In this document: one piece after another, positions 757 to 6,147 of the stretch | Layout: every line of letters starts with the position of its first letter | Position numbering within the stretch: position 1 is the first letter of the stretch | Source: a phage | DNA length: 39,736 nt | Strand: one strand, 5' to 3' | Sequence record: PZ379179.1 | The notes under the pieces: generated by a model | Databases searched by the model: none | Told to the model about the DNA's origin: nothing | Seen by the model: only the letters and a program-made list of their open reading frames with translations | Program-made: the position numbers and the translations under genes

Positions 757-772
757 TTAAAGGATGGACACT

Positions 773-1018
773 ATGAAACACTTAAGCACAATCACTAATC
801 GCAATGAAGTATTCGTGAACACTAAAGGTTATGCGTGGATTCAGCTTAAAGAGGTGACAGGAGCGCGTCACCGTGTGGTAGTGCGCAAGGTATCAAGCAA
901 GCAGTTCAGCAACTACAGCGTCGATACTGTGCGTATAGACAACGAGACATACCTGATAGACTCGCAGATAACCGTGAGTCCTACAGTGGGCGTCTCAGCT
1001 CCTTATTTCGCTAACTGA
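773..1018 (+). CDS. Hypothetical early protein, first gene of the genome (81 aa)
   Basis: Track ORF 764..1018; the AGGA overlaps the ATG at 764, so the ATG at 773 (8 nt downstream) is the better start. No recognisable domain. Confidence 0.55.
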   Translation: MKHLSTITNRNEVFVNTKGYAWIQLKEVTGARHRVVVRKVSSKQFSNYSVDTVRIDNETYLIDSQITVSPTVGVSAPYFAN

Positions 1019-1053
1019 GAGTGATTAACTACAGGTCGTTAGACTGATAGCGG

Positions 1054-1073
1054 CCTGACTGATAGTCACTAAC
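1054..1073 (+). promoter_or_regulatory. Conserved early-region box, copy 2
   Basis: Identical 20-mer CCTGACTGATAGTCACTAAC, 29 nt upstream of the Ocr-like gene start. Confidence 0.35.
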
Positions 1074-1101
1074 ACATACTTAACTTTGAGAGGATATAAC
1101 T

Positions 1102-1605
1102 ATGGAACGTAATGCTAACGCATTCTATGAGCTGCTGGCTGCAACCGTTGAGGCATTTATCGAGCGTATTCAGTACGACCACCTGACTCAAGATGACGAC
1201 TACAGCGCTGCGCTGCATGAGGTCGTAGACGGTCAGGTTCCACACTATTACCACGAGATTTTTACGGTGATGGCTGCTGATGGTATAGACAACGAGTTCG
1301 AAGACTCTGGGATGATACCTGAAACCAAGGACGTAACGCGTATCCTACAAGCTCGCATCTATGAGGCACTTTATAACGACGTGTCTAATAGCTTGGATGT
1401 AGTCTGGTTTGAGGATGAAGAGGCAGACGAAGAGGATGAATATTGGGTAGTTGACGCTAAAACAGGCGCAATAATTGTGCAAGCTGTAGCTCTTGAGGTC
1501 GCTACTGCATGTGCCAAGGTCAACTATGTGATAGGTCGCCACCTTCAGGTGGAAGACATCAATGATAACGTAGTGTTTGACCCTGCTGCTGAGGACTGCG
1601 AGTGA
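1102..1605 (+). CDS. ocr: Ocr-like anti-restriction DNA-mimic protein (T7 gp0.3 homolog) with C-terminal extension
   Basis: 167 aa; [43 protein letters not shown] matches recalled T7 Ocr ([43 protein letters not shown]). Acidic run [10 protein letters not shown], then ~50 extra residues absent from the 117-aa T7 protein. GAGAGGA RBS 7 nt upstream. Confidence 0.85.
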   Translation: [167 protein letters not shown]

Positions 1606-1781
1606 TGGTAACTTATGGCCTCTGCCAGCACCACGTCACTAACGCCCGGCTTATGGTCAAGACCGGGCAGTTAGACCACGATTGGGCTATGCGTCTCTTG
1701 AAAGTGGTCTACAGGAGACGCAAGCGTATACACGACAGTTTACACGCTAAGTGACAGACTACAGGTCATCAATGCTGGTGG

Positions 1782-1801
1782 CCTGACTGATAGTCATTAA
1801 C
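1782..1801 (+). promoter_or_regulatory. Conserved early-region box, copy 3 (CCTGACTGATAGTCATTAAC)
   Basis: One mismatch to copies 1 and 2; 8 nt upstream of the ATG at 1809. Confidence 0.35.
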
Positions 1802-1808
1802 AACTGAG

Positions 1809-2045
1809 ATGGAAGATATGAACACAATCACTGGTGCCATAACCAAAGGTTTTCGAGCAATTTTCGGTGAAACGCAAGAAGTATGCACCAATCATAAATT
1901 CGTACTTTCTTGCGTAGCAGGTGACGAGTTTGACGGGTTCGATAAACTGGTGGTTTGCGACCATTGCGGACAAGAGGCTATCCAACACTCAAACGGTAAA
2001 TTTGAATTAATAGACGATAGCCTTACAGAAGGAGACGGCGAGTAA
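1809..2045 (+). CDS. Hypothetical early protein, Cys-containing (78 aa)
   Basis: Track ORF with ATG start; contains CDHCG and other Cys residues (possible metal site). Sits where T7 has genes 0.4-0.6; no similarity recognised. Confidence 0.5.
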   Translation: MEDMNTITGAITKGFRAIFGETQEVCTNHKFVLSCVAGDEFDGFDKLVVCDHCGQEAIQHSNGKFELIDDSLTEGDGE

Positions 2046-2177
2046 CCTAAATAAACAGGAGAGAACCAAATCATAGCTTGACCATAACACTGACGTGATG
2101 GTACTGAGTGATAGACGAGAGGTCATCGACTGATAGGTGGCCTCAAAGATTACCACTTACATTGATAGGATTTAACT

Positions 2178-2282
2178 ATGAGCACTGCAATCATCTGGAC
2201 TATCTCAGGCTTCGTAGCGTGGGGAATGTTTACTCTAGTCTGCAAACTACCGGTCCTTACTCAACTGTTATGGGGCTTATGA
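2178..2282 (+). CDS. Small hydrophobic peptide (34 aa), candidate membrane protein
   Basis: ATG at 2178 with TAGGA RBS 7 nt upstream; MSTAIIWTISGFVAWGMFTLVCKLPVLTQLLWGL is one predicted TM helix. Below the track size cut-off. Confidence 0.35.
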   Translation: MSTAIIWTISGFVAWGMFTLVCKLPVLTQLLWGL

Positions 2283-2482
2283 CTATGGGTCTTGCACTAT
2301 TGATAGCCATAGGCTATGGACTTATCGCCTACGTGCTGGTGAGAGACATCAACAAATCGCGTAAAGTCTACAAATTCAAATATGTACGTCTGGGTAGCTG
2401 GACTGTACGTCAACCTAACGGACGATTCATGCGTAACTTAGCGAACGTCTGGGATATAGCAACACTTGGGAGCAAACTGTAA
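2270..2482 (+). CDS. Small membrane protein (about 65-70 aa), start uncertain
   Basis: The track ORF 2108..2482 opens with GTG and no RBS. In-frame ATGs at 2270, 2279 and 2285 (the last is 3 nt after the stop of the 2178 ORF) precede a hydrophobic segment LALLIAIGYGLIAYVLV. Stop overlaps the next ATG. Confidence 0.35.
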   Translation: MGLMTMGLALLIAIGYGLIAYVLVRDINKSRKVYKFKYVRLGSWTVRQPNGRFMRNLANVWDIATLGSKL

Positions 2483-2808
2483 TGAACAAGTCATACGGGA
2501 TTAATCTGGTACACTCTATGGACGCAGACATGCAAATGTTAAGCCTACTGGCTACCGGGTATCGTCACGGAACGTCAAGTCACTCCGCACGTCAACAGCA
2601 GGAGCGGGACCGGGTACTGCAAGCAAGACTCCGGGCTGAGGGCCATAAGTCCGAACTAATGTGTCTGGCGTATGGTGGACGACCAATCACTGACGATGGT
2701 AAACTTTTAGTCTCAGGCTGGAAGGCGATAGACCAACGGTCAACCATCAAGCACACGACTCATGGTGACTTCAGTCATCTCCACGCTAACCCGCTGATAT
2801 GCAAGTAA
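2482..2808 (+). CDS. Hypothetical early protein (108 aa)
   Basis: ATG overlaps the upstream stop (TAATG), suggesting translational coupling. Last ORF before the RNA polymerase; no recognisable domain and no kinase motifs. Confidence 0.5.
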   Translation: MNKSYGINLVHSMDADMQMLSLLATGYRHGTSSHSARQQQERDRVLQARLRAEGHKSELMCLAYGGRPITDDGKLLVSGWKAIDQRSTIKHTTHGDFSHLHANPLICK

Positions 2809-2905: not shown

Positions 2906-5587
2906 ATGAGCGTCATCTCTATTGACAAGCACGACTTCTCTGATGTATCGAACGCCATTGAGCCGTTTAACCTACTGGCTGACCACTACGGGCAAGACCT
3001 TGCAGTCAAACAGCTTCAGCTTGAGCACGAGGCATACACTGAAGGCGAGCGACGTTTCATCAAGAACCTTGAGAGACAGACTGAGCGAGGGGAACTGGCA
3101 GACAATCAGGTCGCCAAGCCTTTGATGCAGACTCTGGTCCCTAAGATTGCGCAAGCCGTCAAGGAGTGGCATGAAGGTCCAGACGGGAAGCTGTCAACCT
3201 CTCGTCCGAGCGTAGCGTTCACCATGTTGAGCACTGAAGAGAAGGCCGTAAAGGTCCGCTCTTTGCGCATCTCCTGCGAGTCTGCTGCGGTTATCATACT
3301 GAAGGTCATACTCTCCAAGCTGGTCAAGCCTGAAGGGATACCGATTACACCGATGGCCTCAGCGATAGGTCGCACACTTGAGGACGAAATCCGCTTCGGT
3401 CGCATCCGTGACAAGGAGAAAGAGCACTTCAAGAAGGCGATAGCTGATAACCTGAATAAGCGGGCCGGGGCGTCCTACAAGAAAGCCTACATGCAAGCGG
3501 TCGAGGCATCCATGCTGGAGCAAGGCCAACTGGAAGATGCGTGGGGGACTTGGAGTCCGACCGAGGCTGTCCACGTTGGAATCAAGATGCTGGAGATTGT
3601 CATCCAGTCCACACAACTGGTCGAGCTTAAGCGTTACGGTGCTGGCAATGCAGCGGCTGACGTTGAGATGGTCCACCTGTCAGACTTCTGGGTCAAGAAG
3701 ATGGCACAACGAGGATTCAGCCTTGCGGGTATAGCTCCAGTCTACCAGCCTTGCGTCGTTCCACCTAAGCCGTGGACTGGTGTCGTAGGCGGTGGGTACT
3801 GGGCCAAAGGACGCAGACCATTACCACTGATTCGCTTAGGGTCTAAGTCTGCGGTAGCACGCTACGAAGACGTGTATATGCCTGAAGTCTATGACGCTGT
3901 GAACATCATTCAGAATACACCTTGGAAAGTGAACAAGAAGGTTCTGGAAGTGGTGAACATGGTCGAGAAGCTGAACAACACGCCTATTGATGACATCCCT
4001 CAGATGGAACCGCTGAAGCCTGAGGACTATGCGGGTGAGACTGAAGAAGAACTCAAGGCATGGAAGAAGGCTGCTGCTGGTATCTATCGCCGCGAGAAGG
4101 CCAGACAGTCACGAAGATTGTCACTGAGCTTTATCGTCAACCAAGCGAACAAGTTCTCTCAGTTCAAGGCCATCTGGTTCCCGTATAACATGGACTGGCG
4201 CGGTCGCGTCTACGCTGTGCCGATGTTCAACCCTCAGGGTAACGACATGCAAAAGGGTCTTCTGACTCTGGCAGTCGGTAAGCCTATTGGTGCTGATGGT
4301 TTCAAATGGCTGAAGGTCCACGGTGCAAACTGCGCGGGTGTCGATAAAGTCACCTTCGAGGAGCGTATCAAGTGGGTGGAAGATAACCACGAAAACATCA
4401 TGGCTGCTGCCAAGGCACCGATGGATAGCATTGAGTGGTGGGGCAAGTTAGACTCTCCGTTCTGCTTCCTAGCGTTCTGCTTCGAGTATGCTGGCGTAAT
4501 GCACCACGGCTTGTCTTACTCCTGCTCGCTGCCGATAGCGTTCGATGGGTCCTGCTCTGGGATTCAGCACTTCAGCGCTATGCTTCGCGACCACATCGGT
4601 GGACATGCAGTAAACCTGACGCCATCCGGTAAGGTACAAGACATCTACCGAATTGTGTCTGACCGCATTGAGGAGCAGCTTAAAGTCCTGCTGATTAACG
4701 GTACTGACAACGAGATGGTCACTCACGAGGATAAGAAAACTGGTGAGATTACCGAACGTATCAAGCTGGGGACACGAGAGCTGGCCCGTCAGTGGCTGAC
4801 ATACGGTATGTCACGCAAGGTCACTAAGCGTTCAGTCATGACTCTGGCATACGGGTCGAAAGAGTACGGCTTCGCAGACCAAGTTTACGAGGACATCGTG
4901 ATGCCAGCGATTGACTCAGGGTATGGCGCTATGTTCACCGAGCCAAGCCAAGCGTCTCGATTCATGGCTAAGATGATTTGGGAAGCTGTGAGTGTGACCG
5001 TAGTTGCTGCGGTTGACGCGATGAAGTGGCTTCAAGGTGCTGCCAAGCTGCTGGCTGCTGAAGTGAAGGACAAGAAGACTGGCGAAATCCTGAAGCCATG
5101 CCTTCCGGTACACTGGGTAACACCTGATGGTTTCCCTGTCTGGCAGGAATACCGCAAGAAGGATACCACTCGTCTGAACCTGATGTTCTTAGGGTCATTC
5201 AACCTTCAGCCTACAGTCAACAAAGGAACGAAGAAAGAGCTTGACAAGCACAAGCAGGAGTCAGGCATTAGCCCTAACTTCGTCCACTCACAAGATGGTA
5301 GCCACCTGCGGAAGACTGTAGTCCACACTCACCGCAAGTATGGCGTGATGTCATTCGCAGTGATTCACGATAGCTTCGGGACCATCCCTGCTGACGCTGA
5401 GTATCTGTTCCGTGGTGTCCGTGAGACGATGGTCGAGACATACCGCGATAATGATGTGCTGCTTGACTTCTACGAGCAGTTCGAATACCAGCTTCATGAA
5501 AGTCAGCGCGACAAGTTGCCTGAGCTTCCGAAGAAAGGTAAACTGAATATCGAAGACATCTTGTCTTCAGACTTTGCATTCGCTTAA
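2906..5587 (+). CDS. Single-subunit DNA-directed RNA polymerase (T7 gene 1 homolog)
   Basis: 893 aa; collinear with recalled T7 RNAP, including AFDGSCSGIQHFSAMLRD, VIHDSFGTIPAD and the C-terminal DFAFA. AAGGA RBS 8 nt upstream. Confidence 0.97.
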   Translation: MSVISIDKHDFSDVSNAIEPFNLLADHYGQDLAVKQLQLEHEAYTEGERRFIKNLERQTERGELADNQVAKPLMQTLVPKIAQAVKEWHEGPDGKLSTSRPSVAFTMLSTEEKAVKVRSLRISCESAAVIILKVILSKLVKPEGIPITPMASAIGRTLEDEIRFGRIRDKEKEHFKKAIADNLNKRAGASYKKAYMQAVEASMLEQGQLEDAWGTWSPTEAVHVGIKMLEIVIQSTQLVELKRYGAGNAAADVEMVHLSDFWVKKMAQRGFSLAGIAPVYQPCVVPPKPWTGVVGGGYWAKGRRPLPLIRLGSKSAVARYEDVYMPEVYDAVNIIQNTPWKVNKKVLEVVNMVEKLNNTPIDDIPQMEPLKPEDYAGETEEELKAWKKAAAGIYRREKARQSRRLSLSFIVNQANKFSQFKAIWFPYNMDWRGRVYAVPMFNPQGNDMQKGLLTLAVGKPIGADGFKWLKVHGANCAGVDKVTFEERIKWVEDNHENIMAAAKAPMDSIEWWGKLDSPFCFLAFCFEYAGVMHHGLSYSCSLPIAFDGSCSGIQHFSAMLRDHIGGHAVNLTPSGKVQDIYRIVSDRIEEQLKVLLINGTDNEMVTHEDKKTGEITERIKLGTRELARQWLTYGMSRKVTKRSVMTLAYGSKEYGFADQVYEDIVMPAIDSGYGAMFTEPSQASRFMAKMIWEAVSVTVVAAVDAMKWLQGAAKLLAAEVKDKKTGEILKPCLPVHWVTPDGFPVWQEYRKKDTTRLNLMFLGSFNLQPTVNKGTKKELDKHKQESGISPNFVHSQDGSHLRKTVVHTHRKYGVMSFAVIHDSFGTIPADAEYLFRGVRETMVETYRDNDVLLDFYEQFEYQLHESQRDKLPELPKKGKLNIEDILSSDFAFA

Positions 5588-6124: not shown

Positions 6125-6147
6125 AGAGGTTAACCCTAAACTATCAC
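6125..6147 (+). promoter_or_regulatory. Phage RNAP promoter (phi1.1-like)
   Basis: CCTAAACTATCACTATAGGA; predicted +1 G at 6142. Confidence 0.7.

Follow-up and report, generated by a model that had tools for sequence, protein, structure and literature searches.

Early region of an LM33_P1/K1F-type Kayfunavirus: a probable class I operon of T7-like architecture with partly different cargo

Positions 764 to 2808 of the phage genome studied here probably form the early (class I) operon of a Kayfunavirus of the LM33_P1/K1F type, T7-like in architecture and with a partly different cargo. We put the probability of this reading, proposed roles included, at about 0.6. The window, that is, the whole stretch of DNA analysed (39,736 nucleotides, record PZ379179.1), is a complete Kayfunavirus genome, and sequence comparison gives 99.5% identity to LM33_P1 over the early region. 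An initial annotation, made from the sequence alone, had listed five uncharacterised small genes in this block, here called A, D, E, F and G. All five are real and coding, with the starts of D and F corrected below. These ORFs are not new (K1F gp0.2, gp0.37 and gp0.38; CR44b 0.41/CR8 0.705; annotated since 2005-2014): they are conserved early genes, already catalogued as 'hypothetical' in more than 200 phage genomes.

Kayfunaviruses such as K1F and LM33_P1 are under development to treat infections with K1 and ST131 E. coli, and all Kayfunavirus early genes but ocr are still labelled 'hypothetical'. In its present form the analysis restates what was already known of T7-like phages, whose early regions contain small genes of uncharacterised function, and its novelty is modest. 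It yields a corrected gene map, in which the core genes C, F, G and usually E are set apart from the mobile cargo A and D, and it singles out specific small proteins, namely A, D and those of the E-F-G module. Should one of these turn out to inhibit or trigger a defence system, this would have a bearing on host-range prediction and phage engineering.

Layout of the early block

The early block is bounded by a sigma-70-type promoter-like site (557-586) and by the first phage promoter (2815-2836), both on the plus strand. The former (TTGACA, an 18-nt spacer, TAATAT) is a consensus match only, at 10 of 12 positions, and comes from a promoter scan in which the number of sites was no higher than shuffled sequence would give; by its position 5' of A, analogous to that of T7 A1-A3, it is a candidate early promoter. 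The latter, CTTAACTATCACTATAGGA, starts 7 nt past the stop codon of G. Nine copies of CACTATAGG are found in the window, all on the plus strand, and the copy at 2815-2836 comes first, marking the predicted end of the host-transcribed block. A, ocr, C, D, E, F and G lie between the host-type and the first phage promoters, at the entering end of the genome and in a gene order colinear with that of T7; by position they are class I genes, for which transcription by the host RNA polymerase is predicted.

Four hairpins shaped like T7 RNase III sites, all on the plus strand, partition the block into A, ocr-C, D and E-F-G. The hairpin before A (696-754; -25.6 kcal/mol, z -4.4; repeat families D1 and D2) is made of a lower stem, an asymmetric internal loop and an upper stem, and the one before ocr (1016-1074; -23.8 kcal/mol, z -4.4) again contains repeat family D1. 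The hairpin before D (1757-1795; z -3.1) is T7 R1-like, matching T7 3112-3136 (R1) at 89% over 27 nt. The last, before E (2105-2159; z -2.6), is T7 R0.5-like: it has a 13-nt exact match with the start of R0.5 and the same stem-loop shape, and is kept at 92 to 97% in most related loci. From these likenesses we infer that RNase III cleaves at all four hairpins. The early, host-transcribed position that the initial annotation had given to this DNA agrees with the two promoters and with the hairpins, all of them features of the sequence.

Direct orthologues in the same gene order are found in K1F, CR44b and CR8, and nothing essential differs. Compared with K1F, the window has a longer G, of 108 aa, and has D and E where K1F has an unrelated membrane peptide, gp0.36.

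Ocr and a remote homologue of gp0.4

The gp0.3 DNA mimic is encoded by ocr (1102-1605, plus strand; 167 aa), which matches Pfam PF08684 at 7e-28 (score 97.5 bits, cut-off 25). It is 50% identical to T7 gp0.3 and has a C-terminal extension of about 50 aa beyond T7 Ocr. None of A, D, E, F and G matches PF08684.

Directly 3' of ocr lies gene C (1605-1754, plus strand; 49 aa), the orthologue of K1F gp0.35. Profile searches with C match phrog_5058 (4e-25) and phrog_7202 (4.5e-4), and those with T7 gp0.4 match phrog_7202 (5e-33) and phrog_5058 (9e-5); the sequence of CR8 gene 0.4 is intermediate between the two proteins. C and T7 gp0.4 are of similar length (49 and 51 aa), both stand directly behind ocr and both carry the motif V-x-YGL ... 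AM-x2-[LM]K-x-[VL]Y, whereas their identity is only 37%, over 41 aa, and C is far more basic (pI 10.6). On the strength of these profile and motif matches, C is a remote homologue of T7 gp0.4, in the FtsZ inhibitor family (phrog_7202). T7 gp0.4 inhibits FtsZ and also triggers CapRel-Ebc, and C would arrest division via FtsZ. As a likely FtsZ inhibitor, C could account for the division block reported with K1F, infection by which mislocalises FtsZ and disturbs FtsZ rings (PMC9372555). Homologues of gp0.4 have been reported solely in close relatives of T7 (PMC13423816).

The initial annotation had recognised no similarity between its five genes and T7 gp0.4-0.7. For these five this stands: blastp and tblastn were negative, the PHROGs differ, and sequence and profile comparisons of A, D, E, F and G with T7 gp0.4 and phrog_7202 gave no matches. 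It does not extend to C, a gene left off that list, which matches gp0.4.

Two mobile cassettes

Gene A (773-1018, plus strand; 81 aa, pI 9.7, phrog_10124) is the orthologue of K1F gp0.2, with 95% identity. It is placed upstream of ocr, as initially described, and has no T7 counterpart; its start at 773 is upheld by a Shine-Dalgarno (SD) dG of -7.8. The AF2 model of A (pLDDT 88.5) is a small all-beta fold. A structure-based search had been proposed at the outset, and with this model it found no matching fold among PDB structures. Homologues of A are present in Gamaleyavirus, Ermolevavirus, the Phapecoctavirus phiWec179 and Klebsiella podophages. In Gamaleyavirus SP5M and Ermolevavirus PGT2, they are found some 3 kb from the beginning of the record, within arrays of small genes that are mostly unannotated. 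A search of plasmid sequences with A gave no matches. Judged by this distribution, A is a mobile single-gene cassette common to unrelated phage families.

The start of gene D (plus strand; 75 aa, pI 4.5, phrog_32657) is more probably 1818 than 1809, the one given at first, so that the gene spans 1818-2045: the SD dG is -4.0 for 1818 against +0.6 for 1809, and the PHROG and GenBank annotations also use 1818. Five homologues (74 to 100% identity, a shallow family) all retain the residues C23-x2-H26, C32 and C47-x2-C50, a pattern that looks zinc-ribbon-like; the tail of D is acidic, and D has no match in Pfam. The Kagunavirus Golestan carries a homologue, gp47, with 90% nucleotide identity over window positions 1798-2062, and the likeness is confined to the gene and about 20 nt on each side. 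In Golestan this homologue is the first gene, next to a divergent cro-like gene, and phage 01KA has D at another insertion site, where it separates F from G. D was found in only 57 phage records, and the plasmid search matched one 44-kb record labelled 'plasmid'. Its distribution and sharp borders mark D, too, as a mobile single-gene cassette, common to unrelated phage lineages.

Because both genes behave like mobile accessory genes, we infer for A and D an accessory role in host takeover or anti-defence. A, small, basic and of beta fold, and D, acidic and zinc-ribbon-like, would each bind a host macromolecule, and would be kept or lost depending on the host strain. D, which is swapped between podoviruses and siphoviruses of capsulated/ExPEC E. 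coli, could be an inhibitor of a defence system typical of these strains. In phages, the accessory genes of variable early regions next to ocr often code for proteins that counter host defences or set off abortive infection (Silas et al. 2023, bioRxiv 10.1101/2023.04.06.535777). A and D fit this profile: they are short (75 to 81 aa), occur patchily, have passed between unrelated phages and share the early region with ocr. Motifs of 5 to 10 residues from A, C, D, E, F and G were absent from the 200 accessory genes screened by Silas et al., a comparison by exact motifs that could miss diverged relatives.

The E-F-G module

Gene E (2178-2282, plus strand) starts 19 nt past the R0.5-like hairpin and encodes a single-TM micropeptide of 34 aa with a conserved KLPV-x-[TS]-Q motif. 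It corresponds to CR44b gene 0.41 (91% identity) and CR8 gene 0.705 (47%), and belongs to no PHROG family.

Gene F (2285-2482, plus strand; phrog_2385) is K1F gp0.37, with 91% identity, and CR8 0.71. The initial annotation had placed its start at about 2270; the start is either 2285, which is conserved in relatives and gives 65 aa, or 2279, which overlaps the stop codon of E as ATGA and gives 67 aa. The protein (pI 10.8) has an N-terminal TM helix followed by a highly conserved basic tail, about 90% identical even in CR8, and the conservation of this tail is far above that of G. Two single-TM peptides had been predicted in this region, and the maximum Kyte-Doolittle hydropathy over 19 residues bears this out (1.82 for E, 2.34 for F). 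The K1F orthologue of F is labelled '0.6' in DQ111067; homology to gp0.6 was rejected, F having no detectable similarity to T7 gp0.6. A scan of bacterial genomes with F gave two matches, both due to chance and with stop codons.

Gene G (2482-2808, plus strand; 108 aa, pI 9.3, phrog_7066) is K1F gp0.38, with 77% identity, and CR8 0.38; its start overlaps the stop codon of F as TAATG. The N-terminus is variable, and the core, residues 27-108, is conserved and ends in TT-x-GDF-x-HLH. A HMMER profile of G run against 1.84 billion representative proteins gave 12 matches (representative clusters), 11 of them short proteins of 57 to 122 aa; the twelfth, a protein of 1594 aa, matches in seven separate stretches, and only to the Arg/Gln-rich helix of G. 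An AlphaFold2 model built on a 46-sequence alignment had a pLDDT of 52, unusable for a fold search. A PDB sequence match between G and an endosialidase (E = 0.09) was treated as chance.

F is present in 218 phage records and G in 224. The order E-F-G is conserved in CR8 (Caroctavirus) and in the Enterobacter phages HHH and MII_002, with TGATG and TAATG junctions. We conclude that E-F-G is a conserved membrane module, translationally coupled to judge from its overlapping or abutting codons. The three genes are not strictly interdependent, since F is deleted in CR44b (E and G remaining) and frameshifted in MZ234021, and the ATG of E is replaced by ATT in phage 6925.

Possible functions and comparison with T7

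The families phrog_10124, 32657, 2385 and 7066 are all annotated in PHROG as of unknown function. Pfam and NCBIfam scans of all ORFs, ocr apart, gave nothing above noise, no significant match came from PDB sequence searches with A, C, D, F and G, and homology searches tied none of the five proteins to a target. Together with the fold search on A, this leaves the five genes without a functional assignment, as had been said of them from the start. A literature search on early-gene function or transcriptomes of K1F and Kayfunaviruses found nothing relevant. JSS1_004 (PMC12345140) was rejected: it is a gp0.7 kinase homologue unrelated to these ORFs.

For the E-F-G module we propose that E and F are single-pass inner-membrane peptides, the basic tail of F facing the cytoplasm, and that G is a basic, soluble protein. 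Made in a fixed ratio, the three would assemble into a membrane-anchored complex acting on a highly conserved, envelope-associated host target; such a target is implied by the near-invariance of the F tail across genera. The complex would be the positional counterpart of T7 gp0.5-gp0.6 behind R0.5. A tentative proposal is that one or more proteins of this block take over the host, or counter its defences, by a new mechanism; A and E-F-G are the strongest candidates.

T7 gp0.5 is a small membrane protein, gp0.6 an inhibitor of MreB, and gp0.7 a protein kinase responsible for host shut-off. In T7, R0.5 precedes gene 0.5, and gene 0.6 begins before gene 0.5 has ended. E resembles gp0.5 as the first cistron after an R0.5-type hairpin and as a small TM peptide, an analogy of position and physicochemical character only. 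E-F-G likewise occupies the same place in the operon as gp0.5-gp0.6, with a tiny hydrophobic peptide followed by a coupled basic protein. It differs in having three cistrons, two of them predicted to be membrane-anchored, and in its PHROGs (none and 2385 against 16572 and 8393). Comparison of E and F with phrog_16572 (gp0.5) in both directions gave no match, and there were no cross-matches of F and G with gp0.6A and the gp0.6B tail (phrog_8393). As F and G have no detectable similarity to gp0.5 or gp0.6, the analogy is positional only.

According to the initial annotation, these five genes occupy the place of T7 genes 0.4-0.7. In the strong form of this claim, they would be lineage-specific substitutes, unrelated proteins doing the same jobs (division block, MreB block, and kinase activity plus transcription shut-off). 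No homologue of T7 gp0.5, 0.6 or 0.7 was indeed found by tblastn over the whole window (E > 1 for gp0.5, best E 0.69 for gp0.7), the E-F-G genes sit behind the R0.5-like hairpin in exactly the position of T7 0.5-0.6-0.7, and E is gp0.5-like in its very small size, its membrane segment and its coupling to a basic protein. However, gp0.4 is not replaced, its homologue C being present although the initial annotation had passed over it. Nor does E-F-G replace gp0.7: a gp0.7-like ORF of 244 aa lies upstream of F and G in CR8, where E is also present, and in five related IMG/VR loci, so that F and G, joined in CR8 by E, are an additional module rather than a substitute. Moreover, A, upstream of ocr, corresponds to nothing in T7, and D is a mobile cassette known from few phage records. 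We therefore regard substitution as unlikely.

Less probable still is that E-F-G, or E and F alone, serve superinfection exclusion or envelope sealing rather than an attack on a cytoplasmic process, either by blocking the entry of competing phage DNA or by stabilising the membrane while the genome enters. The first-entering DNA encodes two single-pass membrane peptides, and small early membrane proteins serve exclusion in other phages, such as Imm and Sp of T4 and SieA of P22. Competition is also plausible, given that Kayfunaviruses share hosts (PMC11990801), as well as genes, with Kagunavirus and Gamaleyavirus phages. However, the most conserved part of F is its basic tail, predicted to be cytoplasmic rather than periplasmic, G is soluble and basic, and nothing resembling the known Sie and Imm families was found.

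Coding status of the small frames

Good ribosome-binding sites had been claimed for all five genes. Those of A and G are good, but those of D, E and F are moderate, with SD dG values of -4.0 to -4.7 (the mean over all ATGs of the window is -3.0). Variants among relatives, counted by codon position, amount to 8/8/18 in A, 17/7/23 in F and 21/21/70 in the core of G. For D there were too few variants for this test, and for E the variants among close relatives were ambiguous between frames. E is nevertheless coding in view of its distant 34-aa homologues: pN/pS is 0.22 between the window and HHH and 0.22 to 0.26 against the Enterobacter-phage homologues, with a pS of 0.72 against a pN of 0.16, and the other two frames hold stops in the distant homologues.

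On another view, some of these ORFs, above all the 34 codons of E and the overlapping stretch that extends F upstream, would be frames open by chance, or spacers left untranslated in a leader rich in RNA structure. This is largely refuted and now very improbable. In its favour, E is very short, falls in no PHROG and shares its DNA with another open frame (2108-2482), variants among close relatives gave no frame discrimination, phage 6925 lacks the ATG of E, and neither E nor D has more than a moderate SD. Against it, the length of exactly 34 codons and the motif of E are retained in CR44b, HHH, MII_002 and CR8 with the low pN just given, the extension of the F frame is closed in these four and in 6925, variants in A, F and G are biased towards third positions, and D is 74 to 100% conserved across two phage families. 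Among these relatives, HHH was deposited under Teseptimavirus, and the record of MII_002 carries no lineage.

Identity and coding status of the early genes

A megablast search with positions 600-2950 matched 238 phage records, the best being Escherichia phage LM33_P1 (99.5% identity, entire query covered), followed by other members of the Kayfunavirus LM33P1 species and by K1F, the type of the genus. These matches identify the window as the complete genome of a K1F-like T7 relative (Autographiviridae, Studiervirinae, Kayfunavirus). The initial annotation had drawn attention to five small ORFs standing in place of T7 genes 0.4-0.7, and all five are found in the ORF table and the sequence, on the + strand: A (773-1018), D (1809 or 1818-2045), E (2178-2282), F (2270, 2279 or 2285-2482) and G (2482-2808). 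ORFs at these positions are already in GenBank for K1F, LM33_P1 and vB_EcoP-101118UKE1, as 'hypothetical' or 'gp0.x', and the genes are orthologues of K1F gp0.2, gp0.37 and gp0.38 and of CR44b 0.41 / CR8 0.705. Since copies annotated as hypothetical exist in hundreds of genomes, the sequences are not new; the feature is real but ordinary for a T7-like phage, namely small, uncharacterised early genes that belong to known families. New in our analysis are corrected starts for the genes, the recognition of a further ORF (C) as gp0.4-like, a map of RNase III-like sites, a separation of core from cargo genes, the mobility of A and D across phage families, proof that E is coding, and a confident model of A unmatched among solved structures. 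The early proteins were missing from a large screen for the functions of accessory genes in enterophages, the only such screen checked. The nearest functional work on a related phage, the JSS1_004 paper, deals with the gp0.7 kinase instead.

The start of A at 773, which is also that of K1F gp0.2 and of the PHROG profile, gives an SD/16S rRNA-tail duplex of -7.8 kcal/mol; the value at the upstream ATG (764) is +0.6. D more probably starts at 1818 (-4.0) than at 1809 (+0.6); 1818 is the start in GenBank entries and phrog_32657, and the first Met of the Kagunavirus homologues falls likewise. F starts either at 2285, a position kept in K1F, CR8 and Enterobacter phages, or at 2279, where the ATG overlaps the TGA of E as ATGA; its own TAA overlaps the ATG of G as TAATG. 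Compared with the mean of -3.0 over all 754 ATGs in the window, the good ribosome-binding sites initially reported hold for A (-7.8) and G (-6.5), but those of D, E and F are moderate (-4.0 to -4.7).

Among relatives, variants are distributed over the three codon positions as 21/21/70 in the core of G, 8/8/18 in A and 17/7/23 in F. Kayfunavirus relatives gave too few variants in D for this test; D is 74-100% identical across two unrelated phage families. E is overlapped by a second open frame, and variants in close relatives fit neither frame better. Homologues of exactly 34 codons are found in CR44b (gene 0.41), Enterobacter phages HHH and MII_002 and Citrobacter phage CR8 (gene 0.705), and both other frames carry stops in the distant phages. 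Together with the pN/pS ratio of 0.22 between the window and HHH (pS 0.72, pN 0.16), these stops show that E is a real gene. As had been noted, two of the products are single-TM peptides by hydropathy: residues 4-22 of E have a mean Kyte-Doolittle value of 1.82, and F has one TM segment (2.34). Kyte-Doolittle hydropathy revealed no TM segment in A, D or G.

A gp0.4-like gene downstream of ocr

Searches by blastp and tblastn and a comparison of PHROG cross-hits linked none of the five ORFs to T7 gp0.4, 0.5, 0.6A, 0.7 or the 0.6B tail, and homologues of T7 gp0.5, 0.6 and 0.7 are absent from the entire window. The description 'in place of' T7 genes therefore holds for 0.5-0.7, but not for 0.4, whose family is represented by C. 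This gene (1605-1754, + strand, 49 codons), omitted from the initial annotation, starts at the ocr stop codon and equals K1F gp0.35. Its best PHROG is phrog_5058, with further matches to phrog_7202 (E = 4.5e-4) and phrog_25044; for T7 gp0.4, phrog_7202 is the best match and phrog_5058 follows at 9e-5. Over 41 residues the two proteins have 37% identity; they agree in position and length, CR8 gene 0.4 is intermediate in sequence between them, and all three have V-x-YGL ... AM-x2-[LM]K-x-[VL]Y in common. These resemblances make C a remote homologue and member of the family of gp0.4, the FtsZ inhibitor of T7. During K1F infection, FtsZ is reported to be mislocalised and division blocked (PMC9372555). 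We infer that C too inhibits FtsZ, which would fit this report, and regard it as a candidate cause of the unexplained mislocalisation (PMC9372555).

Core and cargo genes

We counted genes in the 19 related IMG/VR loci containing gene 1: G is present in all 19, F in 18, C in 14, ocr in 9, a K1F gp0.36-like membrane peptide in 6, a gp0.7-like ORF of 244-254 aa in 5, A in two, E in one and D in none. Records in the GenBank phage collection number 218 for F, 224 for G, 119 for A, 57 for D and about 40 for E. The gp0.7-like gene, in loci that have one, is upstream of F and G, and the order in CR8 is 0.3, 0.31, 0.4, 0.7, 0.705 (E), 0.71 (F), 0.38 (G), promoter, gene 1. By this arrangement E-F-G is an extra module, placed between '0.7' and gene 1, that does not replace the kinase. 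Enterobacter phages and phage 01KA have another small conserved early ORF of 41 aa (MYQITYSSEQAFYDGCYEMMKRGACYVANHHSLTITLTGGY; L039 706-831, L040 705-830, L042 1022-1147) in the variable slot that separates C from E or F; the window lacks this ORF.

Promoters and putative processing sites

The sequence CACTATAGG occurs nine times in the window, always on the + strand and inside the phage-promoter consensus TAAACTATCACTATAGG. The first copy (2815-2836) starts 7 nt past the G stop, upstream of gene 1, the RNA polymerase gene (2906-5587, ORF table); the eight others are at 6145, 8188, 17410, 20248, 21233, 26014, 33290 and 38972. A to G are thus all upstream of any phage promoter, in agreement with the class I location (early genes transcribed by host RNAP) initially assigned. 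A sigma-70-type candidate promoter, TTGACA-18-TAATAT (557-586), is a consensus match only, and the promoter scan returned no more sites than expected from shuffled sequence. An ORF annotated 'gp0.1' (342-560, 72 aa, phrog_30192) lies upstream of this only strong sigma-70-type match, in the repeat-rich left end; the longest matching open frame in relatives ranges from 26 to 71 aa, and its expression is doubtful.

Stable hairpins precede A (696-754, z = -4.4), ocr (1016-1074, z = -4.4), D (1757-1795, z = -3.1; 89% identical to T7 R1 over 27 nt) and E (2105-2159, z = -2.6; a 13-nt exact match and overall similarity to T7 R0.5). All four are members of direct-repeat families and share one shape, a lower stem, an asymmetric internal loop and an upper stem, which is identical to that of folded T7 intervals holding the RNase III sites R0.3, R0.5, R1 and R1.1. 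We infer that they are RNase III processing sites splitting the early transcript into A, ocr-C, D and E-F-G, and the early region evidently has a T7-like processing-site architecture. The interval between G and gene 1 (2808-2905, z = -0.7) has no comparable hairpin. Repeat D8 is a duplication between ocr and E of the region where translation starts (ACATTGATAGGATTTAACTATG in E). The ocr gene itself (1102-1605) encodes 167 aa, of which the first ~113 align with the 117-aa T7 Ocr; the C-terminal extension of ~50 residues is missing from T7 Ocr, and several relatives have an Ocr of 110-114 aa without it.

Genes exchanged between phage families

D is found in a subset of Kayfunaviruses and, at 90-93% amino acid identity, in Kagunavirus siphoviruses (Guernseyvirinae) such as Golestan, K1ind1, XY1 and fEg-Eco06, where it is the first gene, beside a divergent cro/DicA-like gene. 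The 90% nucleotide match with Golestan is confined to window positions 1798-2062, that is, the gene and ~20 nt on each side, and in Kayfunavirus 01KA the gene lies between F and G instead of C and E. The Kagunavirus copies, the gene-limited match and the different site in 01KA mark D as a mobile single-gene cassette. For Kayfunavirus, Kagunavirus and Gamaleyavirus alike, the targets are surface glycans of wild E. coli, and these phages even have tailspikes in common (PMC11990801), which would give these phages an opportunity for exchange. The product is acidic (pI 4.5) with a Glu/Asp/Gly-rich C-terminal tail; C23, H26, C32, C47 and C50 are invariant in five aligned sequences, and a zinc-ribbon-like fold is plausible. 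Adjoining the Golestan homologue, gp46 (L033 3251-3754) is an extremely acidic, Glu/Pro/Lys-rich protein of 167 aa that, although dissimilar to Ocr, could be a further early protein of the DNA-mimic type. The only plasmid record with D, CP088689.1 (PLSDB, 44,086 bp, E. coli blood isolate; 4604-4828, 92% identity), may be a misfiled phage genome, because its length is within the 42-46 kb range of D-carrying Kagunavirus genomes.

Homologues of A occur at ~70% identity in Klebsiella T7-like phages, at 60% in Ermolevavirus PGT2 (amid small unannotated genes) and 49% in N4-like Gamaleyavirus (e.g. SP5M), in both cases about 3 kb from the record start, at 69% in the myovirus Phapecoctavirus phiWec179, within an array of small unknown genes, and on a 151-kb phage record. 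A, like D, evidently moves between phage families. An AlphaFold2 model of A, built from 48 aligned sequences with identities down to 39%, is confident and all-beta, with seven strands (pLDDT 88.5, pTM 0.75). It matched no characterised structure; the weak matches were to Tudor, SH3 and RNase II S1/cold-shock domains, which are small beta-barrel domains. BFVD yielded solely uncharacterised proteins of Lelliottia, Acinetobacter and N4-like podophages. A is thus a basic early protein (pI 9.7) that is widely exchanged and has a predicted fold with no characterised match.

The E-F-G module

E, F and G make up a conserved module of contiguous genes, two for membrane peptides and the third for a soluble protein. 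In E the TM helix is followed by a conserved G-K-L-P-V-x-[TS]-Q tail, and in F by a basic tail, KARKVYKFNYVSLGRWTVRQPNGRFMRNLANVWDIATLGSKL, probably cytoplasmic by the positive-inside rule, which keeps ~90% identity as far as CR8, although identity in G falls to 45% there. The N-terminus of G is variable, in some variants with a 30-residue insertion (FTDKNGVEWEYVGTDSRGRNYWEKTG), and is followed by a conserved core (residues 27-108) with an Arg/Gln-rich helix and the C-terminal signature TT-x-GDF-x-HLH. Its family is tiny, with 143 clusters at 90% identity, nearly all of those listed with a long contig being on contigs of about 40 kb, and only 12 representatives at 50% identity among 1.84 billion proteins; its AlphaFold2 model is poor (pLDDT 52). 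The CR8 homologue (L041 2975-3331) has an internally duplicated DGKLL[VL][SA]G[WL]KA segment, and little is left of the MII_002 homologue beyond the C-terminal TTKGDFSHLHANPLICK motif. At the E/F and F/G junctions, stop and start codons are overlapping or abutting in all four lineages examined, which suggests coupled translation and a fixed stoichiometry.

Possible roles

A and D may be accessory host-takeover or counter-defence proteins that bind host macromolecules and are gained or lost by host strain. E-F-G would form a complex anchored in the inner membrane, in which the invariant cytoplasmic tail of F, together with G, would engage a highly conserved envelope-associated host component; the module may be the positional counterpart of T7 gp0.5-gp0.6. 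T7 gp0.6 inhibits MreB. Alternatively, the module could substitute functionally for gp0.5-0.7, or serve in superinfection exclusion. There may well be a new mechanism of host takeover or counter-defence behind A, D or E-F-G; we give this a probability of about 0.3.

The E-F-G module is not indivisible: CR44b is without F, F is split by a 1-nt frameshift in vB_EcoP-101118UKE1 (MZ234021), and phage 6925 has ATT instead of ATG at the E start. Similarly, the A homologue of Shigella phage pSb-1 (L037 about 1500-1720) contains an in-frame stop. This stop, the frameshift and the ATT may each be a sequencing error instead of a natural knock-out; if real, they would make A, F and E dispensable on some hosts.
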